The notes: generated by a model from the letters alone, not told the origin. Positions 5,842-41,126 are shown, counted from the first letter of the whole stretch. The stretch is DNA of 56,999 nucleotides, filler included, from Dirinaria sp. TL-2023a (GCA_051941275.1; 6 parts of 6 records of this genome joined end to end with filler, not necessarily neighbours in it); one strand, 5' to 3'. Translations and numbers: made by a program.

Positions 5842-7404
5842 GACTGCTTGGTGGTGGTCGCCGGTAGTCGCTTGACGCTATTTCGCGACTGATTCCTCGC
5901 AGAAACGGCAACAAGGCTGACGCATGAAACTTGAGATCCTTTGTGTCGGGCACAATCTTATAAGCAAGTGTCACAGCACACAGGAGACAGCAAAGACGTG
6001 GTTTATTATGAGATATTGCAAGCAAATTCGGGACTTGAAAGGAGGTGCGAAATACAGGATCTCTCTACATTTCGTAGTGGGGTCTGGCAAGTTTTGGCGC
6101 CGCCGAGCCAAACCTGCATGACATGTTGCGATGATCTCGCCCCACAGGAAGCGATGTCGCCTTGCTTCTTGCAGATATAGCGCACCCCATTATTGACTGA
6201 TAGGCCAATGTGCGGGCATTGCGTGTGGCTGTGCAGATCAGTGCAGGTGCATGTGGCCGTGCATTGCTAGACTGATTGGCGAAGGGCGATCTTCCCCTGG
6301 AGTCGAATCTTGTCGAATCTTCGGAGACGAGAGGCAATTCTTAACGGTCGGAGAGGGCCGCCATCCATGATACCCTACGGAGTCGACGTTCTCTTCCATT
6401 CGTGCAGGAACTTCGTATAGCCGTTCATGAAGCTTTGAGCAACCCAATGGTCATTACACGGCTTTTGGCCACTTGCAAGGGCGGTCTTGCAGCTATCGCA
6501 TTCGGAGCGGAGAAGATGTTACGGGAAAGTGTCGACGATCTTCGGGTGGTCCGTCTCGACTTGAAAGCCTGCGGCCGCACCCAGTTTTGAACGAATGTCC
6601 AATCATGATGATGCACAGAGGAGACGATTTTATTTTCTTTTTTTCCTTTGAAAGTCGCCACACTGGCAGTGGACTCCTCGAGGACGTTCCTTAATTGAGC
6701 TGTGAGGTGGGGGGTAACTTTCGAGTAGTCAATGGCTACGACCGAGATGCGATTCGATTCGAATGCCATGAAATCTCATTTTCTCGTCCGACAGGCGGAG
6801 GAATGAGTTGGGTTGTGCGGAGCTATGCTGATGCCAGCTGGGACAGTAACATTTCCTGGAGTAACAGTTCACGGTTTGATATGGATATCCGGAAGGTGTT
6901 GGTTGTTCATAGTTTATGAGTAAGAATCATCAATAATGATAATAGTTCTTTCACGTACTCTTATTAAGTGCATTAATATCTCCCTACCTTACTCCCTACC
7001 TTACTCCCAATACCCGGCAATGGCCGGCAAGAGACGGCTTGGGCGGGCCGTGGAATGACAACATCGAAGCTCCCATTGGCCGAGACACTACCTTAGTACT
7101 GACGCTCGGTAGCCGTGTTCAGGGTCCTTGACTGGATGACCTCATTATAGCTGACATTATCACGTGACCTGCCCCGCAGCGAGTTGCTGGTTCGAGCAAA
7201 GTCAGTCAAGTGGAAGAAGAATCGAAGGCGAAGGAGCTGCAGGCGAATATTATTTATTGCTTCGTCACTTCTTTTCCTCCGTCCTCCGATTTATCCCTTG
7301 AATTCTTCCTTCTTCCAAAAATCCAACTCTTCCATCGACTTCTCCATCACCTTTCATCCACCACCATCAACCAACGACCATTCAACTCCTCATCACCATC
7401 AACC

Positions 7405-9174
7405 ATGTCGACTCAAGCTGGCGAACCTGGCAACCCCAAGGGTGCCGGCCTGTTCAGAACCTACGAAGACGACCGTAACACCTCCTCCCAAGATACTCTC
7501 TACACCACCAGCAATGGCGTCCCCATGCCTCACCCCTACGAGACCCAGCGTGTCGGTACCAACGGACCTCTGCTCCTCCAAGACTTTCACCTGATTGATC
7601 TGCTCTCCCACTTCGACCGAGAGCGGATCCCCGAGCGGGTCGTCCACGCCAAAGGCAGTGGCGCTCACGGCACCTTCAAATGCACCAAGCCCCTCGACGA
7701 TCTCTGCCAAGCCGACATCTTCAGCAAAGCCGGCAAAGAATGCCCCGTCACAGTCCGCTTCTCGACCGTCGGTGGCGAATCCGGCTCCCATGACTGTGCC
7801 CGCGATCCTCGTGGTTTCAGCGTCAAGTTCCGGACCGAAGAGGGCAACTGGGACATGGTCGCCAACAACACGCCCGTCTTCTTCCTCCGAGACCCCGCCA
7901 AGTTCCCTCACTTCATCCACACCCAGAAGCGTGATCCCGCCACCCACCTCAGCGGGTCCGATGACTCGACCATGTTCTGGGACTACCTCTCCCAGAATCC
8001 CGAATCCATCCATCAAGTCATGATCCTCATGGGCGACCGCGGGATCCCGGACGGCTACCGTTTCATGCACGGATATTCTGGCCATACCCTCAAGCTGGTC
8101 AACAAGAATGGCGATTGGGTATATGCTCAGATGCACATGAAATCGAACCAGGGAACCAAATTCATCACCCAAGAAGACTCCGCCAATTACTCCCCTGACC
8201 ACTCCCAGAAGGACCTCTTCGAAGCCATTGAGCGGAAGGAATACCCGAGCTGGACCTGCAGCTTCCAGACAATGACGGCCAAGGAAGCCGAAGACCTGTG
8301 GGAGAAGCAGAAGATCAACGTCTTTGACCTGACGCACATCTGGCCTCATAAGCAGTTCCCACTACGCGAAGTCGGGGTCTTTGAGCTGAACGAGAATGCG
8401 CGGAACTACTTCGCCGAAGTCGAGCAGGTAGCTTTCAACCCCGCGCACATGATCCCGGGCATCGAACCTTCGGCGGACCCAGTCCTGCAATCCCGCCTCT
8501 TCTCCTACCCTGACGCCCATCGTCACCGCGTCGGTGTCAATTATCAGCAGCTGCCGGTCAACAGCACCCGTGCTGCTCACCGCGTGGCCAACTTCCAGCG
8601 TGACGGCAACATGGCCTTCTACAACCAAGGGTCACGTCCCAACTACCTGTCCTCCATTGAGCCGATCTCCTTCCGCAACCGGAGCGTCGACCTGGACAAA
8701 GTGCATGGCGAATTCACCGGTAATGCCGTCACCTTCCTGTCCGAGATCCGGCCCGAAGACTTCAACGCCCCGCGCGCGCTGTGGGAGAAAGTATGGGACG
8801 AAGGCGCCAAGCAGCGCTTCGTCAACAACGTCTCCGGCCACATGAAGACATGCCGCTACCCGGAGATCATCAAGCGCGAGATCGCCATCTTCCGCGAAGT
8901 GTCACCGGACATGGCGGCGCGCGTGGAGAAAGCGACGGGCATCAAGGGCTACGACGGCATCAAGCACCTGCGCTTCAACGGCACGCACAACGGCATGGCG
9001 GCCGAGGACAAGTACAAGCTGGCCAACGGGATGAGCGGGAAAGTGGGGCTCAGCGCGCAGCCGAACAACGGCGCGCCGCAGAAGGGCACGCACCCGAAGG
9101 AGAGCACCCCGAACGGCGCGGGGACGGGCGGCTCGAGGGTAAATGGCGTCAGCAACGGGGTGAACGGTCATTAG
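7405..9174 (+). CDS. cat: Monofunctional small-subunit heme catalase, intronless
   Basis: Active-site motif FDRERIPERVVHAKGSGA, RFSTVGGESGS, heme-ligand motif RLFSYPDAH. First ATG at 7405 in AACCATG context. No C-terminal SKL-type PTS1. Confidence 0.97.
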   Translation: MSTQAGEPGNPKGAGLFRTYEDDRNTSSQDTLYTTSNGVPMPHPYETQRVGTNGPLLLQDFHLIDLLSHFDRERIPERVVHAKGSGAHGTFKCTKPLDDLCQADIFSKAGKECPVTVRFSTVGGESGSHDCARDPRGFSVKFRTEEGNWDMVANNTPVFFLRDPAKFPHFIHTQKRDPATHLSGSDDSTMFWDYLSQNPESIHQVMILMGDRGIPDGYRFMHGYSGHTLKLVNKNGDWVYAQMHMKSNQGTKFITQEDSANYSPDHSQKDLFEAIERKEYPSWTCSFQTMTAKEAEDLWEKQKINVFDLTHIWPHKQFPLREVGVFELNENARNYFAEVEQVAFNPAHMIPGIEPSADPVLQSRLFSYPDAHRHRVGVNYQQLPVNSTRAAHRVANFQRDGNMAFYNQGSRPNYLSSIEPISFRNRSVDLDKVHGEFTGNAVTFLSEIRPEDFNAPRALWEKVWDEGAKQRFVNNVSGHMKTCRYPEIIKREIAIFREVSPDMAARVEKATGIKGYDGIKHLRFNGTHNGMAAEDKYKLANGMSGKVGLSAQPNNGAPQKGTHPKESTPNGAGTGGSRVNGVSNGVNGH

Positions 9175-19055: not shown

Positions 19056-20427
19056 GTGGAACGAGAGGCTCTGCCTCTGCGTTCAGATGTCCTAGGTGTT
19101 TCCGTTGGTGTGGACTGTCGGCCCCAAGGATCCCAGGCGGGTTAGGCTTTACGCCGTACCTCCAGGGATCCCAGGTGGGCTCAGCTTCAGGACCGCAATT
19201 CTCTGTTATCCCAGGCGGGCTCGCGCCCCCAGGGATTTCAGAGTTTTGTTGTCGTCCTCGTTGCCGAGCCCCCAGGGATCTCTGGTGGTCGGTGTCTTGC
19301 TGCACCTTCCCTGGATCTTTGGATCGATAGTCCTATCTCCGGTTCCCTAGACTCTGTTCGCATTGGTATCCTTGTTCATCATGGCTTTCGGGTTACTAGC
19401 TTTAGATTTCTGTGCTTTTTCTGTGCTTTTTCTTTGCTCGCTTGCGAGCTGTTTTGTTTTGGCGTTTGGGTTTTGTGTTTAGATAGCTCTAAGTGAATTT
19501 CACTTTTTTATTTTCCGAAATGCGCATTTACTAGGCTCGCTCTTCTGCTGCTGTTGAAGATGGTGATCTGAGCCTGGAAAGTTGCAATAGATACATGGAG
19601 CGTATCTGAAATCCCCTAGCTCTCTCTTTCAAAAGACGGACATCAATGTATTATTTGGTCCAGCGGTGTACTCCAACCTTTTCTTCCACTCTCCTCTGCT
19701 ATTTCATTACTTTTCGCATTCCGCTCTGCTTCCCCTGTACTATTCACTTCTCTTCTGGCAAACGTCTGCAAATCTAATATCAACCATCCCCCGGATAAGT
19801 AAGTATCATTCATCGCCTTTCTTCCCAATCTAAAAAGCAATGAACACCAACGTTGAATGTAAGGCAGAAATCTCACCACCACTAACAAAATGCCAAGGAT
19901 AATTTGACGAAAGGGGTTAGACTACATACTAGTCAGCAGACCTCGGGTATTTCCTGCCCACAAAAGTTCTTCCTTCCGAACCACAAGTCTGCAGTGCAAT
20001 CTTGCTCAAGACCGCCTCGACGCAAAGCCTATGTAGCCGGGGCACCCTTTTAAGCAAGCACATGAAAGCCCAACCTCTTGCCCAGAACGAAAGTCTAAAG
20101 TCACTTCAATGATGCCTTCGTCCCTTGACCTTTTCGAAAGACTCTAACGTGAACAACATCTCGTACATTTACTTGACTTTTTATTCAAATTTGATGACTG
20201 CAGTCTTGAACTGCTCTAATTGCTCTTCTGTACCTTTGCAGCGAATGTGAAGTTACATCTTCTCATGCTCACCGATCACAAATACTCGTACCCTGCTCAA
20301 TGTTTAATTTGGGTTCTGAATCTCTTGATGGAGTGCGTTCTCAAACAACTGTTGGATGCACTCTTGCAGCGTTTTCGATGTCATCAATGCAAAATCGACA
20401 CGAGTATGTCCGAGAGGTAATTGAGAC

Positions 20428-22812
20428 TTAGTCACAGCGCCTCAGAATGAAGAGGACGCCTTGACCATGAATCGGCTTGCCCCGGCAGTCTTTCCCATTA
20501 ACATTGTCTTTGTGCTCCCCCCTGACACTGCGGTCGTTGAGAGCCCACCAATCTTGCTGACTGGGTCCGGTCTTAGCCATAGCGATGTAGTGTTCATCGC
20601 TAGTTCCGGGACCAATGTGTTCAACAATGCCACACAGCTCGTACTTGCCACCGGAGACTGCTCCACTCTCTGGTGCCCACCCGCTGAAGCTCCGCGGGTT
20701 GATCTGTGGCAGGATGGGTAGCTGGTTCTTGGTCCCATCCGCATTGGTGCGGCTCACAGTAAAGGCCAGGAACGGAGACAAATCGCCGAGTCCCAACTTT
20801 GACGTCACGCCGCCGTACCGTCTGCACCTTGTGCACGGCATTTCAGGTCGGGCCTTCTCTTGTGTGTAATGGTCCACGCAGCTCCAGAGGGTTTCACAGG
20901 TCTTGTCCTCCTGTCTTTTGTCCTTGGAGGCTTTCTCGGATCCCTGGCCTGCCTGCTTGTGTTTTTCATCTTGGACATGCGGGAGGCTCAAGTGGAGTGC
21001 TGAGAGAAACCTCGACGTGCTGGAACCATTGTACCTCACATGGGCACACCGAGAACATCTCACCTAAAACACTGTCAGCATCAAATATGATTTAAGTCGT
21101 GTATATCAGTGTAATATACCGTCTCCACAATCTGTCCGCCAAAGAGCCGGTTCAGATCGGTCGGATCTGCGAAAGAGCCTTGCTTCCGACGTTGCTCCAA
21201 ATCTAGCTGGTGAAGAAGCTCCTGGAAAAACTCGACCGGGTCCACTGCGCTCTCGCCGTCGAATCTGCGCCCTTGGGGCAGCTTCTTGGCTTTCTTAGCG
21301 AAGAGATTGAGGAACAAGACTGGGTTGATTGGATCTTTGAGCCCAGTCGAGTTCTCCATCTGTTCCAACAGATCTCCAAGGTCGGAACTTATGGAGCTAT
21401 TCAAGAGTCAGTAAAGGCCTGTTGAGTGCTCCGCAGAGACTTACATGTCCTTCACCTCGTCCAGTTCCCTCACTATTCCGCGAAGGACCTTCCTACCCTC
21501 CAGACCCCCGCGCCTAGCACCCGATCCCTCGATGAAGTAAGGTGGATACTTTTTTTCATCGGCGCGAGCTGCATCGTCGGCCATTGCCTTGTAGTAGGTC
21601 GCGAAAGCCTCGCAGGTACCCAAGCACTGGATTACGGCATTCGCGTAACAATTCTTCTCGTAATTCAAGAAGCCGCGAGGTTTGGCCGTAGTAGGCTTTT
21701 CACACTTGGGCTTTTTGGCTGCAGTGGCCCGAGCTTCCTTGGTTCCCCGTTTACCAGATGCCCTAGACGTCTCATTGCCCTGTGTCCTTGCCTTTTTTGG
21801 GCTGGAGTGCTGATCATTCTCGCACTTTCTCTTTTGCCCAGGGGCAGGAGCAGGGGCAGGAGCAGGGGCAGGGACAGCAGCAGCAGGTGCCGAATGCTGA
21901 GCACGAGCAGGAGACGTGGTCACGACTTTCCTCACGGTCCGTACCTATAGAAACCAGGTCAGCCAATTTTCCTAGCCAGTCAAAATAATGTCCAGGTTGC
22001 CTTTGATTACTTACCGCAGGCTTTATCCCACGCGCGCTCTTGCCAAAACCAAGTACAGAATCCAGTCGCGGTCCTCTGTAGGTCCGCACCGACGATGTTT
22101 TCTCGGAGGCATCGGGTGATGTGGAGCTCCCTGCAGCGGCCGACTGCTTCTGTCCAGATGTCTCTTGCTTTGCTGTTACGCTCGCCTGCTCTCCTGATTT
22201 CTCTTGAGCAGACTTGTCTGTTGGCATATGAGCAGCAACAGCGCCTCTCGGTACGGATGCACCGGTGGCAGTATCTCTTGGCGGGAAAGCAGAGCCGCCG
22301 TTACGATCGTCAACCTTAGCGACTTTTGTTAGAATGCTACGTCAAAAATGTCTTATGACAGTTATACCTTTTGCCTTTTATTGGAGAGGGACACGACTGC
22401 GGCTATCTCCATCTCGTCACGACTGCGCTTCGTCTGCGAGCGCTCCGTACTGCAGACCTTAGCGTTGACAGCAGTGGTAGGTCTCGTTGACAGAGGCTCC
22501 CTCAATGCTTTCCTTTGCTGTGTCACAATATTAATATCATATGTTAAAAAAATAAATGAATCAAAGCACCTTCTTATTCTGCTGCATTGTCTCTTCGTTG
22601 TCCATATAATCAGCTTTTCTCTTGTGGGTTGGAGAAGCTGGTGGCGGTGTTGGGTCGTATGGCGGGATCTATTGGCAGAACATCAGAAGGCGCAGTATGG
22701 ATGGGTTTATATACCATATGCTTACGTAACGCGGATGAACGGTACCGTTCTCTCGATCTTGTTGAAGCTTGCGCACATGCTCCAAAGCCCTCTGTGCCTC
22801 GGCAGATCTCAT
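20428..22812 (-). CDS. Divergent ubiquitin-specific protease (peptidase C19/USP) with long low-complexity N-terminus
   Basis: Seven exons: 22812-22726, 22668-22570, 22517-22368, 22314-22015, 21944-21445, 21396-21120, 21063-20428, all GT-AG and in frame. Cys box GFLNYEKNCYANAVIQCL, DPVEFF, two CxxC, His box YELCGIVEHIG...EHYIAMAK...WWALND. Confidence 0.8.
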
Positions 22813-24789
22813 GATGACCGGTTGTGATGGTGAGTCACCGATTTTGTTGGGACGACGGTTCAGGGATGAAGATGGTTGTGATGGATGTGTGTAAAGTTTA
22901 TGATATGAGTGATGGCAGTAGCTGATGGATAGCAACTACTTGCGGTCAGCTTTGGTAGTGATGGACACGGGAGAGAAACTGACCGGGTTCAGAGAAGATG
23001 TGGGTTCATATAGGCAATGCTTGAGCAAGTGTTGCTCTCGCAATATGCGTGATATAATAACGGGTTAAAGAAAGCGTGTTGCGTTAGTGTTCTCGAGGTG
23101 TTTAGGAGTTGTCAACACAGTTGGATGTTGCTCGCTCAGCGCCAATTCAGAAAGCCAGCCAACATTGTGGCATTCTTGAGGTGTTTTGAGCACACTTATT
23201 GTGGGTGTTTTTCGCTGCACGCCACAATAGGAACTTGTCCAAACACCTGAGAACAATCGGCGCAAGGGTATCCACAAGCCATTCCATGACAGTATTTAGT
23301 ATATTCTGATCGGGACTCGGGTGTCTTGAGTCACAGCTTCTCTTTGTCCTCATATCTAGGACTTTTCAATCCCAGTTGTATCTTTGATGAGTTTAAGATG
23401 CTTGTGACTCGCCCTGAGGGATTTATATAGGGGACTCTAGTCCTTTACAGTGTAGTGAATGCGATCTATCTAACACGAGGTAAGAGTGAAGCACAATCCC
23501 TCGTGTCAAAGTGTGTACTTTGACTAATGTTCTCGCAGTATATATTCCGGCTGATCGAACGGCGTTCATCAGAATACTGCCATGATCATCCGTAGTGGCT
23601 GAGTTAGACTGTGATGTCGGGAATCCATAATGAAGTGGCTGGAAACACTTTTTACTGTGAAGATCAGAGCTTGTGCTCAAGGTTGTTCCTTATAGCGAAT
23701 CTTGCTGGCATAAGAAAAGTTGAAACAAAGTATTCTCGCCAAAGTTCACTGGTCGCTAATGAGAGAGAAATCGGAGTAGAATTTCCTCAGTCGATCCAGT
23801 TGCTATTAATGCTGAATTAAAGACTAACGCCATTCTTCGAGTCTAGGCTAGAGTCTATAGCAATAAAATCCAGCCTTGGGAAGCTTGACGCTTTGCGCAA
23901 GTACTTAGTTGAGCTTCTTTATGGATACAGCAATTTACACTACTAAACAAATATAGCAAGCAGAGAAAGGTACATTGACTGGTTATTCGGCCAGCTTGCG
24001 TCCTCGAGAACTCCCTAGTACTTTTTATCAAGACGTATCGAGATTTTAGGAGCACTATCCAGCATAGTCCTGCTCTTGTCTCCAGATGCCGACTACACAG
24101 CTAAGATTAATCGAAAGAGATATCCCTGGAAAGCGCCACGTCTCGACAAATACTAGTGTTGGAATGCAGATACCGCTCGGTGCGGATATCTCGGCTCATT
24201 CAACGAAATGTTTGCTGTACTGTTAGGTAGCCGCAATGCCGTTTGAGATCAACAAAGTGATCGATGGAAGGGCTGAATCTTCACAAAAAACGAGAAGGAG
24301 GAGAAAGAATTCAGAAAGAGAAATAGAAAAAAGGAAAAGAAGAATGAAAGAAAGAGAAGAAAAGAAACAAGGCTGCCGGAAAGTGTGAATCCTTCGAGTA
24401 GACGTCTACCACCCCCGAAGTCCTTTGTGCAGTGAGTAGTAAGCTACAATCAATATTATCGCAAATGATTTTGGAGCGCGAAGCCCCTCCCCAATCTTTG
24501 CGGGAGCTTAGAGCGGCCTGTGGGCAGCGATAGGATGATTTACCGCTACACTCATGCACGTCTTGTTTCATGTGGAGCACTCTCACCTTTAACTTCTCCA
24601 CGGCGACTGCCTCCGAGCGGCAAGGATTCGCATTGCCACAAAAGCTAGGATGGGCGCATTTAGCATCACAACATGTAAGGCGTACTGTGGAGCTGGTCCT
24701 CATTCCTTCTCTCCAAACTTTTACTCTGGCCAGCGTCTCCCATGCATTTAAAGTCTGAGCGTCAGTGTTATAGCTTGCACATTGTGAAA

Positions 24790-25795
24790 ATGGCTTTGAA
24801 GTTGTATTCCGTCATTGCCGTCTTCTACCTCTCATTATTTGTGTTAGCGACTAAAGCAGTAGATCCGAATGCTCATTGCTACGCTGGTAACGGTACGATA
24901 GTCCCCGATCGACCATGCGATACGTCAAGAGACGTCAGCTTCTGCTGCGGTGTAGGCTGGTCTTGCCTTTCCAATGGCCTTTGCCAGTTCAAGCATAGTA
25001 CCTCTTTCGCTGAGGGTACTTGCACCGACACATCATTCCCGGCAAATGCGTGTTTGGGACTGTGCCTAGCTAGTACGTTGACTGTAATCCCATTTCCCTG
25101 AGGAAATACGCGACATACTGATAAACTATGGTGTAACAGGTGGAAACGAGGATCAAACCCTTGTACATGATTGTGGTGGCTCTGGCGATGGGGATACCAA
25201 TAGCTGGTGCTGCGCTGGAGAGCAAGGTACTACCGGGCAGGGTCAAGATTGCTGTTCGACCAATGCCACAACAACGTTGCCCTCTTTTCCCTACTCAACA
25301 GTCACCGTGATCACAGCAGCGTCCACTTCGTCGGTCAAACCACTGTCATTGCTCAATACCGTGTCGCCGGCAAGTGAGCGCAAATCATCTTCTGCTCTGC
25401 GGTCCACGATCCCAATTACACATAAGAGTGTCAGCTCGAGTCGGAATTCGAGTCCAACTTCAAGTGCAAACGTGCCGACTAGCACAACGCAGACGTCCAA
25501 CTCCGTTGACTCTTCAACCCACGATGTCTCGCATAATGTGGCGATTGGCGCAGGTATCGGTGTACCTCTTGGCGCAATTCTCTCCATAGGCCTCATAGTC
25601 TTGTTATATCGGATGAAAAGAATAAAGAAGCAAATGACCGAGTTACAGAGTCATTTGATCAAAGCCGAGGGAAGCGCAAGTGAGCAAGAGGATGGAGAGA
25701 ATCCTCCCCAGATGCAGTATGAATTGGAAACAGGTATAGACCGTGGTGAGCTCGCAGCTGGATACACGAGGCATGAAATGCCGGGCAGAATGTGA
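24790..25795 (+). CDS. Mid2/Wsc-like single-pass cell-surface protein (signal peptide, Cys-rich domain, Ser/Thr stalk, TM)
   Basis: Exons 24790-25072 and 25140-25795. CYAGNG...CCGVGWSCLSNGLC...GTCTD and TM AIGAGIGVPLGAILSIGLIVLLY. Confidence 0.8.
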
Positions 25796-26828
25796 GCGAC
25801 ACTAGGTTCGTCAGACTCAAGTCCTCAAATATATGTTTCCATTCTTTCACAAGACTAGTAAATTCTGTCCCGCAACTTGCCCTGTATGAAGATGTGCACA
25901 CACGTCACTGGTATCTAGTCTTCCGCTGAGATATGTTTGCAGTACGTAACGTCCTAACACATGACAGGCTCAAGAAATTGTAGCTCTGCATACGAGTCAT
26001 GCCAAAGAGAAGGGAAAAAAACCTCATATTTGTTCTAGCTGCTGCATCATTGCAGAACAAGGAATTTTGGTGTCTACTAGACTGAATTCTCGGCAATAGC
26101 CAGCCATGGCCCGGAGGATTCGCCAAAGCGGCAATGAACGAATAATTTGTGTCATATTACCGCCTGACTTATGCGAGCCGTGTTTTGTGTTTGTAGCAGT
26201 ACCATCGACCTTCGACTATTGAGTACAGCCTCTTGCCATTGGCTAGCCTTCCACATCGCTCCTGAGCAAGCGGATCTTGCAGATTCAAAATCGTCTTCCC
26301 ACATCGCGCCCTGTATGAACCTTCCTTAGATATAAACGCTCAACTATGTTTGCTGATTTCGAGGGCCTTTTTGAGAGAGGAACGAACGGAATTGAGTCGC
26401 ATATGGTTTTCGCGGTTGATGAAAACTTGAAGCTCTTCAAACAATGCTTTAAAGGTGTCAGATCTTCTGGAATGTTCATGTAGGAAGCCTTGTCATCATG
26501 GTACCTGGTACGATACGAACAATTATATATCTAGATCATGATTAGCTCAGCTCACAGAGCGTAGCTTGTCAACATCCTGTTCTGATAATCACACTTCCGA
26601 ACCTACCAACTGAATTCCAGTCATTTATTCAAATGTTAAAGTGCAGAACCATGCAAAGCGTCCAGTGGAGCAAGTAAGAGCATTAATTCGAGTAATGAGA
26701 CGTACATGTCTGGTCAGATTGAAAATAAAAGGTAGAAACAGGGACGTGGAAGGGGTCGCGGTTGATTTGCGGACGAATACCGCCCAAACATCCGTATTTC
26801 CCTCACAATATATATTTAATAGGGCGCG

Positions 26829-27034
26829 GTTGAATCTTGCCCACCTTGGCCGAGTGGGAGGTTAGCTTCGAAGAGAACCGTTCCCTGGCCCCCCGGTAAT
26901 CGACGGAGCTAACCCTAAGGGAGTGAGACGGCGAGGAAACGGCTAGACTGATCACCTAGCTGGATCCGAGTCCTTATCCTTTTTGCCTTGGTTCGATTCG
27001 GGCCGAGGTCAACTTTTTTTTTTTTTTTTTTTTT
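26829..27034 (+). ncRNA. Candidate RNA polymerase III-transcribed structured RNA of unknown family
   Basis: AT-rich TATA-like box 26807-26820, A box TGGCCGAGTGG 26847-26857, B box GGTTCGATTC 26990-26999, T5 at 26980-26984, T21 at 27014-27034, several helices. Not a tRNA cloverleaf. Confidence 0.5.
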
Positions 27035-28475
27035 GGCGTTTTTCAAAATAGGGGAGGGGTAAGATGTTTTACACTTTGGACTATTATTGGTTCTAGATGT
27101 TTTTGACATGCAGAACGAGTCCGATGTTGCATGTATGGTGTGGCTGGATCGTTGTACAGAAAAACTGTACTCCACCCCTATCTGACTTCTATTTGCTCAC
27201 ATTCTCAACAAATTATCTACTCCCGTCCCAGTTGCCTCTGAGCTTAACACTAACTAACTCCTCTACGTCGAACCCGCCTTCCTGATTTATCTACACCACG
27301 TCAAACATGGTCAAACTCCCCCCTGATCCCAGAATGCGTCAAATGTCCGATTTCCATCATGCGCGTGTTGAACACAGTTCGAACTACTGACTTCTTCCAG
27401 CACAGGCCTTCCTGGGTATCGCGATCGACAGCCAGATAGATGGTTACGCATACATTATTTTCTACTGCTGACGGCTAGAAGCCACCGAGTGTGAAAAGCC
27501 GGCTATCTCAAGCTTCCAATCACGTTATATAAATCCTCGTCACGCCCACGATCCATCCGCTTCCTCCTTCGCTAACAATTATTGCCGGTATACAGACCGC
27601 TCAGCATTGCCGAAATCGAAAACACAATTTTATTGATTGATATTTACCTACGGTAATTCGAGCTATCAGGACTGATATAATTGATCTCCTTCGTCCGAAA
27701 AGATAGTTCTGTGGAGGTAAATAAATGCATGTACTCAAGACATGGCAGCCCAGTCCTCTTCTTTGCTATCGAATTTCTAACTAATTCTCAAACTGAAGCG
27801 CCTGTCATGTTTCTTCAAGTTCCACCTCTTTCTGTTCAAAAGCTCAGGAGAGCCTCATAAAATGCTTCACGCAAGGAGCTCCTTCCCCTCGTTTACCCTC
27901 GATCAAAACCCTCTGACTGATTGTACAGTCTACGGTACGACATACTCAAATCAGAGTCGTTCGGATGGCAATTCCGTTTGTACAAAATCTGAACATTGTA
28001 TAAAGTTCCCAATCCTTCTGTTCCAGAATATATATACCCATTGTTACCCTCTACTGGCCACTCCATATTTATCTGTCGGACAGAAAAAATCAACAAATAC
28101 AGCAATAATCATTCACCAAAAGAGGCGCCCTCTTTTGGTGCAATGTGCAAGATATTTGCTGTCTTACATTATCGCACCTCGAACTCCTTTCCCTTTGCGA
28201 CTCCATCTTTAGGAATGTGATGTTCTGTATCCTTAATTAATCCTCCGACACCGAAGAATGCTAATTATTATTTCCTAATTGTTAGTAAGGATCTAGGGGT
28301 ACTGGCCTCAGGCACACCGCCTCTCAGGGGTATTGCGCTAAACCTGATCGGGGTGTTTAGCCGCTCCCGCCTACGCAATGTATGCATTGAAAACCTTCTG
28401 TTTGCTAGTAGCAATTTCGGCACTTATTTGAAGCAAAGAAAGAGTCCTTATTTGTTGTTGACTACCTGGCTTAAG

Positions 28476-32273: not shown

Positions 32274-33350
32274 TCACGGATTTTGCGTGTAGCGCCTGGA
32301 CATATATTCCACAAGCAATCCTCCAGTAAGAGAGCCTCCAGCATACCAAAATCCTTTACTGAACCACCACCAACAACTCCATGTATCCTTCAAATCGACT
32401 TCCGCAATCATGAGACCAAGTGAGATTGCTGTACCGCCGACAGCAATCAAATGATATGGTACGGTCAGCCCGCTCAGTCTGCCACAAGCGACCAACAGCC
32501 CAAGCATTAAGGCAAGGAGCTACCAAAGCAGAGGCTTGGTCTAGTCCTAGTACAGGACTGCCAAACTCTTAATGCCAGCTTTGATATCGTCATTGACATC
32601 CTGGTGTGCGTAGACTGTGTCATAAATCATCGTCCATAAAATGCTCGCCAGGAAAAGGCACAATGTCGAAAGCTCTGCGTGAAAGTTTTTGCCCGACCCC
32701 ATGATCCCAAAGGTAAAGGGTTTTAATCCCATGACCAAAGAGCCAATGATGATGCCCCAAGCAAGACAAAAGCCAAGGACCAATTGCGGGCAGTTTATAT
32801 GTCTTTTCGCCCAAGGGTAGTAGATCCACCCTATTATACTCGGTAAAGCATAGAGCGTGCTTTGCAGAAAGGTAAATGGTAGAAACGGTAGGAAAAGTCC
32901 AGCGCCAAGGGCTTGGGTTAAAGTGAACACAAGTGCGGCCTATGATGATACTGCACCGCGAGGGATCGGGCGATGGCGAGTACGCTCCACGAGTTTGTCC
33001 AAGGGCGCATCGATCAAATCGTCCCATATATGGATGGCGTTTGAGACAAAGAAGCTTCCGCCGAGCATGGTCACGCTCTTCTGGAGCGTGTGATATGGCG
33101 GGGATTGCTGGAGAACAGCGGCATGCAGAACACCAAAGAGGTGGGGGAAGTAGATGAGGAAAAGACCCGCGGGCGGGTTCAACCGTGCCAATTGCACATA
33201 TGGCAGCCATGAATCCGGAAGGACTGCTATCCAGCCCGAGTTCACGTTGCCGCCGTACTGTTGGGCGACCGAGCAATCCTCGGAAGACATTTGTGACGGA
33301 GTGGAAGGCGAGCCATGCTTTCGGGAGTTGCGTTCGAGGGAAGTCATCAT
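32274..33350 (-). pseudogene. UbiA-family aromatic polyprenyltransferase (secondary-metabolism type) with four in-frame TAG stops
   Basis: LPDSWLPYVQLARL, WDDLIDAPLDKLVERTRHRPIPRGAVS, YDTVYAHQDVNDDIKAGIKSLAVL. Single frame, with TAG at 32940-32942, 32547-32549, 32541-32543 and 32520-32522. Confidence 0.85.
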
Positions 33351-34138
33351 GAACGGAAAGCTAAGGAGTTTTCCTTCGATAGAAGGGACGCTGCGCAGTG
33401 ACTGTACGTGAAAAACGCAATGGGGATTTTGCAATGAACAAGAATGGCCCATGAGAGAGCATGAGCGGGGTTAAGGTATGTATAGGGGACACTAAATTCC
33501 AATTCTTCTGCTTGCAAATCCAAGTACGCAGCCTGTGTGGTAGTAATACCAACTGTACTTTACGTTACTCACATTGTCCAACACCACAGCGAATGGAACT
33601 TTGACCGAGCTTCGAGGAATTGGGCGAACTGCCGATCATACCTCGCACACTTCTCATGTAAGCGAGCGGTTGAGCCTGGCTGAGCGGATGCTGGATGGGC
33701 TGTAGGAATGTGTGGGCTCGGAGCTGAACTTGCACACTTGCTACCCAATCGTATGCCAAGCTTGCTTTGGGCCTAATAATACAAGAGAAGAGTACCTACC
33801 TAGAGGTACGGTACCTTACTACCTACCTTAGGTACCTTAAGGTACCTGTAAAATGCTTTACTTACATGTACAGTACATCTGGATGCAGCAGCAAGTGGAA
33901 CCGAACCTACCGTACCGTACCTTAAGGAAGATGAACCCTCCAAGGCCCCGGACTTGTCTGCATTACCTTACCTGTATAGCATCTGAAGGTTCAGTCCCTA
34001 CTGAGTACTGTACCGACCTTACTGTACTCGTACCTTACCTTCACCGGAATGTTGCGTAAGGGATTACCTTAGGGCCTCCTTAGCCATCACTCGTCCTCTA
34101 CCTTACCTAAAAATTGGGTAAGGCATCCTTGGTCAGCA

Positions 34139-40172: not shown

Positions 40173-40263
40173 GCGGTCTTAGCTCAGTTGGGAGAGCGTC
40201 AGACTGAAGTTTAAAATCAGTCATCAAATCTGAAGGTCGTGTGTTCGATCCACACAGACCGCA
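40173..40263 (+). tRNA. tRNA-Phe(GAA) with 18-nt intron (40210-40227)
   Basis: Acceptor stem GCGGTCT/AGACCGC, D arm AGCTCAGTTGGGAGAGC, anticodon arm TCAGA-CTGAAG^A-TCTGA, T arm GTGTGTTCGATCCACAC, T5 terminator 40267-40271. Confidence 0.97.
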
Positions 40264-41126
40264 CGCTTTTTGGCTTCATACGTATACGTGCTGCGATAGT
40301 TAAGGTAAGTATTACTGGTTTGTGCCCAATCAATTACGTATTTCAAATGGATGATTGAACTATGCTCCAGCCGACTTTGCTGAAGAAAGAAAATCAGAGA
40401 CATTGAATGTCCTAGCAAAAACAGGTGCATAGCTCGTGGCCCGCTAATTAGCGCACTGATTGTGTCCTTCTCCTAATGATACTGATTGAGATTTCCCAAT
40501 TTGTCTATTCAGCAACGCTTCTGCATGAGTGAGCCAGTCCACTGTCATTTCGTAGATGCAGTTTGCCATACTTAATCACGCAGAAAAAGGTCACTGGGTG
40601 CTGGTTCGCTTGACCAGAGCTGGAAAGAGCAATAAATCAACCGCAAGGGACAATTGTTTGCTCGTTTCGAGGAACAGCAGCGATGCGGCATTTTCAGGAT
40701 TAGATTTAATGGGTAACTCGCTTTAGAGATTGGCCATTGTAGAGAATCGAGAATGATTGAAGGAGCCAAAGGGGTAAGTACATAATGCCACCTCTTGATT
40801 TCCAGAGAAGGTCCGAATCCAGGCTTGTGGACCCTGTACCCTATCTGCCTATCTCCAAAACCCATTTCAAGAGCTTAATGCGTTACTACAACTACTCTTT
40901 TATAATATACATCGTTGAAAATATTTCTACTTACCACGCTTTCGCGGCTTCGTAAGAAGCGAGCTGGTGCACTTATGAGCCGAGAAACTCACAAGGGCCA
41001 TGAGGGTGCTCATCAGTAATAAATGTGTATCAGATGCGATGTATCCACTCAGTGCGCCCCGCCAAGTCCGCTTCTCTGCGGTGACGGATCAGGCGTCACA
41101 GGGTGGTTGAGGTCACGAATTTAATC

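Follow-up and report, generated by a model that had tools for sequence, protein, structure and literature searches.

A candidate Pol III RNA unit with a predicted two-arm fold and two dispersed relatives in a fungal genome

What kind of gene, if any, is marked by a short intergenic unit that carries Pol III signals around a folding middle and, inside it, a 10-mer resembling a telomerase template? The unit lies on the plus strand of the window, the whole stretch of 56,999 nucleotides that was analysed, and a preliminary description had read it as a Pol III-type structured RNA of no recognised family, with a speculative link to telomerase. We found that the TATA-like box, the A box, the 10-mer, the internal T5, the B box, the T21 run and all the helix arms named there are present at the positions given for them. 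The unit itself is called copy 1 below, and two relatives elsewhere in the genome copies 2 and 3.

The TATA-like box AATATATATTTAAT occupies 26807-26820 and, together with AATAGGG, forms a stretch common to copies 1 and 2 in alignment (26807..26824), which by its position would be the TFIIIB site. Further upstream, the element TATTTCCCTC (26795..26804) has the same sequence in copy 2 and can still be recognised in copy 3; it is probably a promoter element. The A box TGGCCGAGTGG (26847-26857) lies within a 5' hairpin, and the B box GGTTCGATTC (26990-26999) follows 143 nt past it. The T21 run at 27014-27034 is the putative terminator, while the internal T5 (26980-26984) is a candidate weak terminator; a stop there would shorten the RNA and leave the B box downstream of its end. 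By analogy with other Pol III genes, the RNA would start at a purine between 26828 and 26834, and the predicted product of about 180-186 nt (26828..27013) corresponds to the fold and the RNA-library contig described below. Frames resembling a small membrane-protein gene (24679-25795; Pfam below cut-off) lie about 1 kb upstream of the unit, and frames of 80-100 codons that cross it appear to have no gene-like signs.

Taken singly, the motifs are weak: the A-box pattern had 2 matches against 0.74 expected, the B-box pattern 1 against 0.51, and the 10-mer 1 against 0.10, which 10 of 100 shuffles equalled. A relaxed pattern of A box, B box and T-run, built on general consensus sequences, matched the unit and the genuine tRNA at 40173 and nothing else. 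Since this joint pattern was present in just 2 of 200 shuffled windows (mean 0.01 match), the layout is taken to be above chance.

Searched at the DNA level, the assembly (27.7 Mb in 3105 contigs) returned four places, which represent three copies, counting the unit itself. Copy 2 is split between two contig ends, on C2255 and C2029; given an overlap of exactly 57 nt, these are counted as one copy. Its two parts match copy 1 at 87 of 97 and at 119 of 133 aligned positions (about 90%). An RNase H-like relic of a reverse transcriptase lies about 730 nt upstream of it (PF17919, E 3.4e-5, below cut-off). Copy 3, on C382, shares 118 of 173 letters with copy 1 (about 68%). A reverse search of the assembly with copy 3, the exact core pattern and the 5' hairpin pattern brought up no further copies; with up to three mismatches, the hairpin pattern had exactly 3 matches there and its control pattern 0. 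Three copies are a lower bound, given the fragmented assembly, the break in copy 2 and the possibility that very distant copies escaped the searches. Another 12 one-mismatch matches to the core pattern in the same genome were rejected because none matched model R1, and the overall totals of the control and real patterns were equal (16 each).

All three copies end in T-runs. The B box is identical in copy 2 and lost in copy 3, and the A box reads TGGCCAGGTGG in copy 2, off consensus, the hairpin nonetheless being kept. From their sequences, copies 1 and 2 look intact and copy 3 appears diverged. Similarity sets in about 40-45 nt before the inferred start and stops with the T-run. Over the first 70 nt upstream, copies 1 and 2 can be aligned (none of 1000 shuffles did as well), as can copies 2 and 3 (1 of 1000 did as well), and copies 1 and 3 have no direct alignment (399 of 1000). 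Neither a second block of 70 nt farther upstream nor the first 70 nt downstream aligned in any of six copy comparisons. Provided that transcription begins at the site expected from Pol III geometry, the copies have untranscribed promoter DNA in common, which argues for duplication at the DNA level with the promoter retained, and not for copying via RNA.

The predicted fold of 26825-27020 has an energy of -77.9 kcal/mol (z -2.99; 1 of 200 shuffles equally good) and reproduces the helices of the preliminary description. Folding alone is not unique to the unit, since 2 of 31 background 180-nt windows of the same contig fold more strongly. In the model, the RNA opens with a 5' hairpin (26840..26858) that has an invariant UGGCC loop and holds the A box, with 6, 7 and 7 of its 7 pairs present in copies 1, 2 and 3. 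Arm B (26860..26914; z -4.2) is composed of an 11-bp basal helix, two 2x2 purine loops and a variable top, and its 21-nt arms are 76% complementary around a 13-nt loop; the basal helix retains 11, 10 and 9 of 11 pairs in copies 1, 2 and 3. Arm C (26917..26982) is an interrupted helix with two more 2x2 purine loops, a 7-bp top stem and a 9-nt loop (z -3.4 for 26916-26983), all of it kept in copy 2 and part of it in copy 3. The four purine loops of the two arms are candidate tandem G.A pairs in this model. The 3' strand of arm B, the hinge and arm C constitute the conserved core (26898..26983), as defined from copies 1 and 2.

Some of the elements proposed earlier hold for copy 1 and less well for its relatives. 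The terminal hairpin at 26986-27008 is present in copy 1, whereas the other copies keep 6 and 8 of its 10 pairs; the GTTGA/TCAAC pairing is peculiar to copy 1; and the T5 run is T4 in copy 2 and interrupted in copy 3. RNAalifold on the three copies gave an alternative middle fold with two both-sided changes, and with three sequences the two predicted folds cannot be told apart. An exhaustive helix listing contained many short chance helices that also bear both-sided changes.

The substitution pattern is uneven along the unit. Between copies 1 and 2, the core has 2 changes in 86 nt as compared to 19 in 88 nt elsewhere (Fisher p 9e-5), and in arm B the 5' strand and top vary and the 3' strand does not. 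A near-identical core might also have arisen through gene conversion or because the duplication is recent. Copy 2 keeps 44 of 47 modelled pairs, where scattering its 10 changes at random with an unchanged transition rate would leave 40.2 (p 0.008), a count that favours the structure of copy 1, from which the model was derived. Changes in copy 2 fall on 10 of 92 paired and only 2 of 45 unpaired positions, and its 3' part of 135 nt folds with a z of -0.27. Copy 3 carries 24 changes in the core, keeps 36 of the 47 pairs (p 0.25) with no pair-preserving signal, and folds like its shuffles (z 0.2). In the column-shuffle control, the three copies gave no sign of covariation: 175 of 500 shuffles scored as high, and a single pair had changes on both sides. 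At positions identical between copies 1 and 2, copy 3 has C-to-T changes at 13 of 34 C and G-to-A changes at 3 of 39 G (p 0.004); with both directions counted, C/T and G/A changes amount to 16 of 56 and 7 of 67 (p 0.02). This excess on the sense strand fits either tolerance of G.U wobble in a sense RNA or hypermutation of one strand. Hypermutation specific to CpC was rejected, as 4 of 14 CC, 5 of 9 CG and 0 of 12 GG were changed.

A trace of the unit is present in an RNA library. RNA-Seq run X1, a lichen metagenome among the 22 runs listed, contained 15% of the sampled words, and over 26000-27800 (1801 bases) it gave one 160-nt contig (depth 2.5), which covers 26855-27002 and spans T5 and the B box; no other contig lay on the flanks within that interval. 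The contig has 5 differences from the unit, with 12 letters unplaced, and the difference at 26890 falls in the variable top of arm B. It hints weakly either at transcription or at a related strain in which the unit is conserved, X1 having been selected for containing this stretch, DNA in the library being possible and the strand not being given by the contig. Run X21, from the same sample, had zero cover on the unit, which decides nothing. The share was 0.04 for 19 of the 22 runs; of the two that were aligned, X2 gave nothing and X5 gave 36 letters away from the unit. The telomerase RNA match described below suggests that the organism is an ascomycete, and a lichen-type fungus is indicated by this one run, since a lichen-metagenome RNA library holds the unit.

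We consider it quite probable that the unit belongs to a Pol III gene family that is transcribed at all. The earlier wording of a poorly known Pol III RNA has gained two paralogues, a shared upstream promoter, pair-preserving changes in copy 2 and an X1 contig confined to the unit. Our main reading, with a rough probability of 0.45, is that this small Pol III gene family, with three dispersed copies, makes an RNA of about 180 nt that acts as a whole molecule bound to protein. By analogy with general Pol III biology, TFIIIC would bind the A and B boxes and TFIIIB the TATA box, and Pol III would start near 26828-26834, read through T5 and stop at T21, with La capping the U tail of the RNA. The RNA would then display the 5' hairpin and the two long arms, whose four 2x2 purine loops, with the hinge, may form a protein-binding surface; such a role is suggested because loops appear more conserved than stems across the whole core. 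Its function would presumably be that of an RNP serving as scaffold or decoy, in the manner of vault or VA RNAs, and not that of a template or guide. As a first guess and nothing firmer, the partner might be a double-stranded-RNA-binding protein of the RNA-silencing machinery. The copies would have multiplied at the DNA level together with their promoter.

Among the alternatives, the one that survives best, itself rather unlikely, is that the unit is a low-copy SINE-like or tRNA-promoter-derived selfish element or its relic, transcribed by Pol III without a host function, with copy 3 in decay. The copies are dispersed and end in T-runs, copy 3 has neither a B box nor a significant fold, and the relic near copy 2 (PF17919) would be in keeping with such an origin. 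Low-copy tRNA-related SINE-like units of 140-493 bp are described in Aspergillus fumigatus (PMC5063351), and collapsed extra copies are possible because copy 2 is broken at two contig ends. However, there are three copies, and they have presumably untranscribed upstream DNA in common. No target-site duplication is found at a consistent position around them, only chance-sized repeats of 6-7 nt, and the best of these in copy 1 (AATAGGG) belongs to the shared promoter. The B box is located at the far 3' end and not in a tRNA-like head, the full unit is unlike the one tRNA tested (p 0.40-0.60), and the changes in copy 2 preserve pairs. The SINE-like part of the preliminary description thus holds for the internal A and B boxes, one test for a tRNA-derived SINE, which are both present in copy 1 (off consensus at the A box of copy 2, without the B box in copy 3), while many copies, target-site duplications and a poly(A) tail are lacking.

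It is unlikely that the unit is a Pol III precursor of microRNA-like RNAs, comparable to milR-1 to milR-4 of Neurospora, in which a Dicer/Argonaute-linked cut would release a 19-25-nt guide from arm B, with its conserved 3' strand. Its size, TATA box and T-run fit pri-milR-1 (about 170 nt, TATA-dependent), and putative A and B boxes were drawn for milR loci (PMC3547838). A short intergenic unit with TATA element, hairpin and T-run, as in a Pol III pri-milRNA gene, is present, and arm B offers two 21-nt arms of 76% complementarity around a 13-nt loop, with a variable 5' strand and top. On the other hand, the conserved block runs on through the hinge and all of arm C and so exceeds one guide, and the X1 contig may represent a near full-length RNA. 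A whole-molecule RNA is favoured over a guide because conservation lies in the loops of both arms, beyond a 21-25-nt product.

It is very unlikely that the motifs came together by chance in intergenic DNA, or that they mark a site where TFIIIC binds and no stable RNA is made: each motif alone is weak and the evidence for transcription is one contig, but the joint layout appears in 2 of 200 shuffles and the three copies have sharp common boundaries.

The preliminary description had also set the unit apart from tRNA, U6, SRP RNA and RNase P/MRP, and the results of ARAGORN, Rfam and shuffled alignments agree. Rfam gave zero match for the unit at gathering score and nothing at cut-off on copies 2 and 3; up to E 10, 4 matches fell on the unit, all far under their cut-offs. 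ARAGORN and RF00005 find 40173-40264 alone and no cloverleaf in the unit. A likeness to U6 seen by eye was rejected over 12 alignments with the genome's own U6 on C2711 (p 0.11-0.95). RF00009 and RF00030 have no match on the unit, both genes are located elsewhere in the genome, and the best of 24 RNase P/MRP alignments (p 0.037) is not significant given the number of tries. With motifs taken from general consensus sequences, C/D snoRNA and Sm snRNA were rejected for want of a box C and an Sm site in the unit, and H/ACA snoRNA as well, because AGAGAA, an H-box pattern in all three copies, sits inside arm B with no 3' ACA. Protein partners of other families were searched for too: PF05731 (Ro60/TROVE, partner of Y RNA) had 0 matches in this incomplete, intron-split genome, its control matching in 2 of 14 genomes, and PF01505 (major vault protein) had 0 matches with a control that matched in none.

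The genes for U6, RNase P, MRP and telomerase RNA were all located in the assembly, whereas Fungi_SRP and Metazoa_SRP had zero match there (26 of 182 candidates scored, control without match, 3105 contigs). A divergent SRP RNA is worth testing, since no SRP RNA was found and non-canonical SRP RNAs of Basidiomycota escaped the models (PMC4605306). That the unit is a highly divergent, shrunken SRP RNA replacing the one not found is nevertheless highly improbable. The absence of an SRP match in the assembly may reflect its 3105 contigs, the 26 of 182 candidates scored and a silent control, and SRP models match neither the unit at E 10 nor the other copies at E 5. The UGUNR motif, universal in fungal Alu domains according to PMC4605306, is absent from all copies, and the same paper has S-domain changes occurring "not at all within Ascomycota". 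The predicted fold is without a helix-8-type tetraloop hairpin or a symmetric A-C loop, and about 180 nt compare with about 280 nt. The extreme case, in which the unit would take the place of the missing SRP RNA altogether, is more improbable again.

The proposed telomerase link concerned the telomere-template-like 10-mer CTAACCCTAA (26909-26918). Its predicted unpaired probability is <=0.03 at 26909-26914, 0.7 at 26915-26916, 0.26 at 26917 and 0.08 at 26918, so that 8 of 10 positions are predicted to be mostly paired, and telomerase templates are single-stranded (PMC3603654). Copies 1 and 2 both have the 10-mer, whereas copy 3 has CTAATCCATA in its place. Telomerase models gave zero match on the unit up to E 10, with no pseudoknot or CR4/5 match. 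On contig C696, RF02462 matches 8223-8380 at 47.4 bits (cut-off 30) and 8822-8867 at 26.1 bits, and TAACCCTAA lies upstream of both at 7050 on the same strand; template, pseudoknot region and three-way junction come in order over a span of about 1.8 kb. Judged by these matches, C696 carries the canonical ascomycete telomerase RNA gene, and its arrangement agrees with the elements of the Aspergillus oryzae telomerase RNA of 1.9-2.4 kb (PMC3603654, PMC4993307). The link is refuted because a canonical telomerase RNA is found elsewhere and the 10-mer is not conserved, the combination that had been named beforehand. The exact 10-mer has a chance of about 9e-5 per unit of the same composition, a post hoc figure, and about 55 chance copies are expected genome-wide; that copies 1 and 2 both contain it is a curious coincidence. 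As DNA, it presumably also fits a putative site for a Tbf1-type factor. That the unit makes a short additional telomerase RNA by way of Pol III, or an RNA that binds telomeres through CUAACCCUAA, is extremely improbable, for the rarity of the 10-mer and its retention in two copies are outweighed by the C696 gene, the changed and mostly paired 10-mer, its expected frequency in the genome and a unit that matches no telomerase model.

Apart from the X1 contig, one metagenome scan and one viral scan found no relatives outside this genome. The 18-letter core pattern picked out 24 loci in metagenomes and 1 viral locus; similarity went no further than the pattern in any of them (best nhmmer E 0.029, best score against model R1 14.2 bits), and all are taken as chance. 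Open-access literature searches, aimed at families and not at the sequence, found no description of such a unit. Pol III genes are poorly documented as a set in filamentous and lichen-forming fungi (the open-access searches returned one off-topic paper or none, with most subscription journals outside their scope), and a structured RNA present in three copies, whose promoter is conserved and which has left a trace in an RNA library, is a candidate new small-RNA family. The broader proposal of an undescribed Pol III RNA class of lichen-type ascomycetes, characterised by the UGGCC hairpin, arms with G.A loops, assembly into an RNP, paralogous sets and conservation beyond the species, is doubtful. 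Our analysis also removes the false lead of a short fungal telomerase RNA and pinpoints the real telomerase RNA gene.

Several known systems resemble the unit in part. Vault and VA RNA genes have an upstream TATA box and an internal A box, to which vault RNA genes add a B box near the 3' end. Like them, the unit has its TATA box upstream, its A box near the 5' end, a structured middle and few paralogues, and it has the terminal B box of vault RNA in particular; unlike vault RNAs, it has no Rfam match, is longer and has an unconserved closing stem. It has a 1.5-repeat TTAGGG-complementary stretch in common with ascomycete telomerase RNA (RF02462), but is about one tenth of the length, has no pseudoknot or CR4/5 match, and holds that stretch paired and unconserved. 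As in AfuSINE2 of A. fumigatus, copy number is low, Pol III boxes are present and the sizes overlap; AfuSINE2 has target-site duplications and a tRNA-related head (PMC5063351), whereas the unit has a terminal B box, shared upstream DNA and no evident duplication. The portions of the Li and Breaker screen consulted describe nothing resembling the unit (PMC5640933). "Intergenic structure 2" (Gao, Jones, Rivas 2021; PMC8216456) is likewise a stand-alone structured RNA candidate of Pezizomycotina with no assigned function, reported at an average of 144 nt, mostly in single copy, from 223 sequences in 207 genomes; the comparison, which bears on novelty, is by description only. The milR-1 to milR-4 genes of Neurospora crassa, also from a filamentous ascomycete, are equally intergenic, about 170-190 nt long and equipped with a TATA-like box, a T-run and hairpin arms (PMC3547838). 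In the account given there, milR-1 has no A or B box, while the unit has both, and the unit is further set apart from the milR genes, by description and not by sequence comparison, through conservation that extends over both arms and the hinge.

In every copy of the unit, a putative RNA polymerase III gene of about 180 nt at window 26800-27040, the 5' hairpin (window 26840-26858 in copy 1) carries the self-complementary motif GGCC in its loop, within 26847-26851 in copy 1. Arm B (window 26860-26914) has a second GGCC in its top loop (within 26886-26890 in copy 1), which is shared by copies 1 and 2 and is not kept in copy 3. The presence of the motif in both loops would allow a loop-loop contact between the 5' hairpin and arm B. 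On contig C2255, copy 2 is preceded at a distance of about 730 nt by a reverse-transcriptase RNase H-like relic (L003:588-800; PF17919, E 3.4e-5, below the cut-off).

An intron-containing tRNA gene at window 40173-40264, judged Phe-like from its sequence, provided the positive control for the relaxed A box, B box and T-run promoter pattern. Protein-coding genes on the minus strand include a ubiquitin carboxyl-terminal hydrolase gene, seen as three frames (window 20428-21944; Pfam UCH), with an Ala-Pro repeat close to its start, and a UbiA-type prenyltransferase gene (window 32547-33470, assigned on 32547-32939).

Hairpins also occur elsewhere in the window. A long, GC-rich and very stable hairpin with repeated CCCAGG words is located close to a contig end at 19145-19300, where the fold of 19080-19300 reaches -112.8 kcal/mol (z -6.5); it had no match in Rfam at E 1. 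A perfect 12-bp hairpin with a 3-nt loop (arms CACCAAAAGAGG and CCTCTTTTGGTG) is intergenic at 28114-28140.

The canonical telomerase RNA gene of Dirinaria sp. TL-2023a is on contig C696, at approximately 7030-8870 (L025), with TAACCCTAA at 7050, the pseudoknot region at 8223-8380 and the three-way junction at 8822-8867. The same assembly (GCA_051941275.1) did yield U6, RNase P and MRP as well as telomerase RNA, while fungal and metazoan models of SRP RNA found no match in it; this may reflect either an assembly gap or a divergent gene. Near the 5' ends of both the RNase MRP match (L026 on C32) and the RNase P match (L027 on C35) we found CTCACATACAGA, and no T-run was present within 60 nt after either match. 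The RNase MRP and RNase P genes here may not be polymerase III genes of the budding-yeast type.
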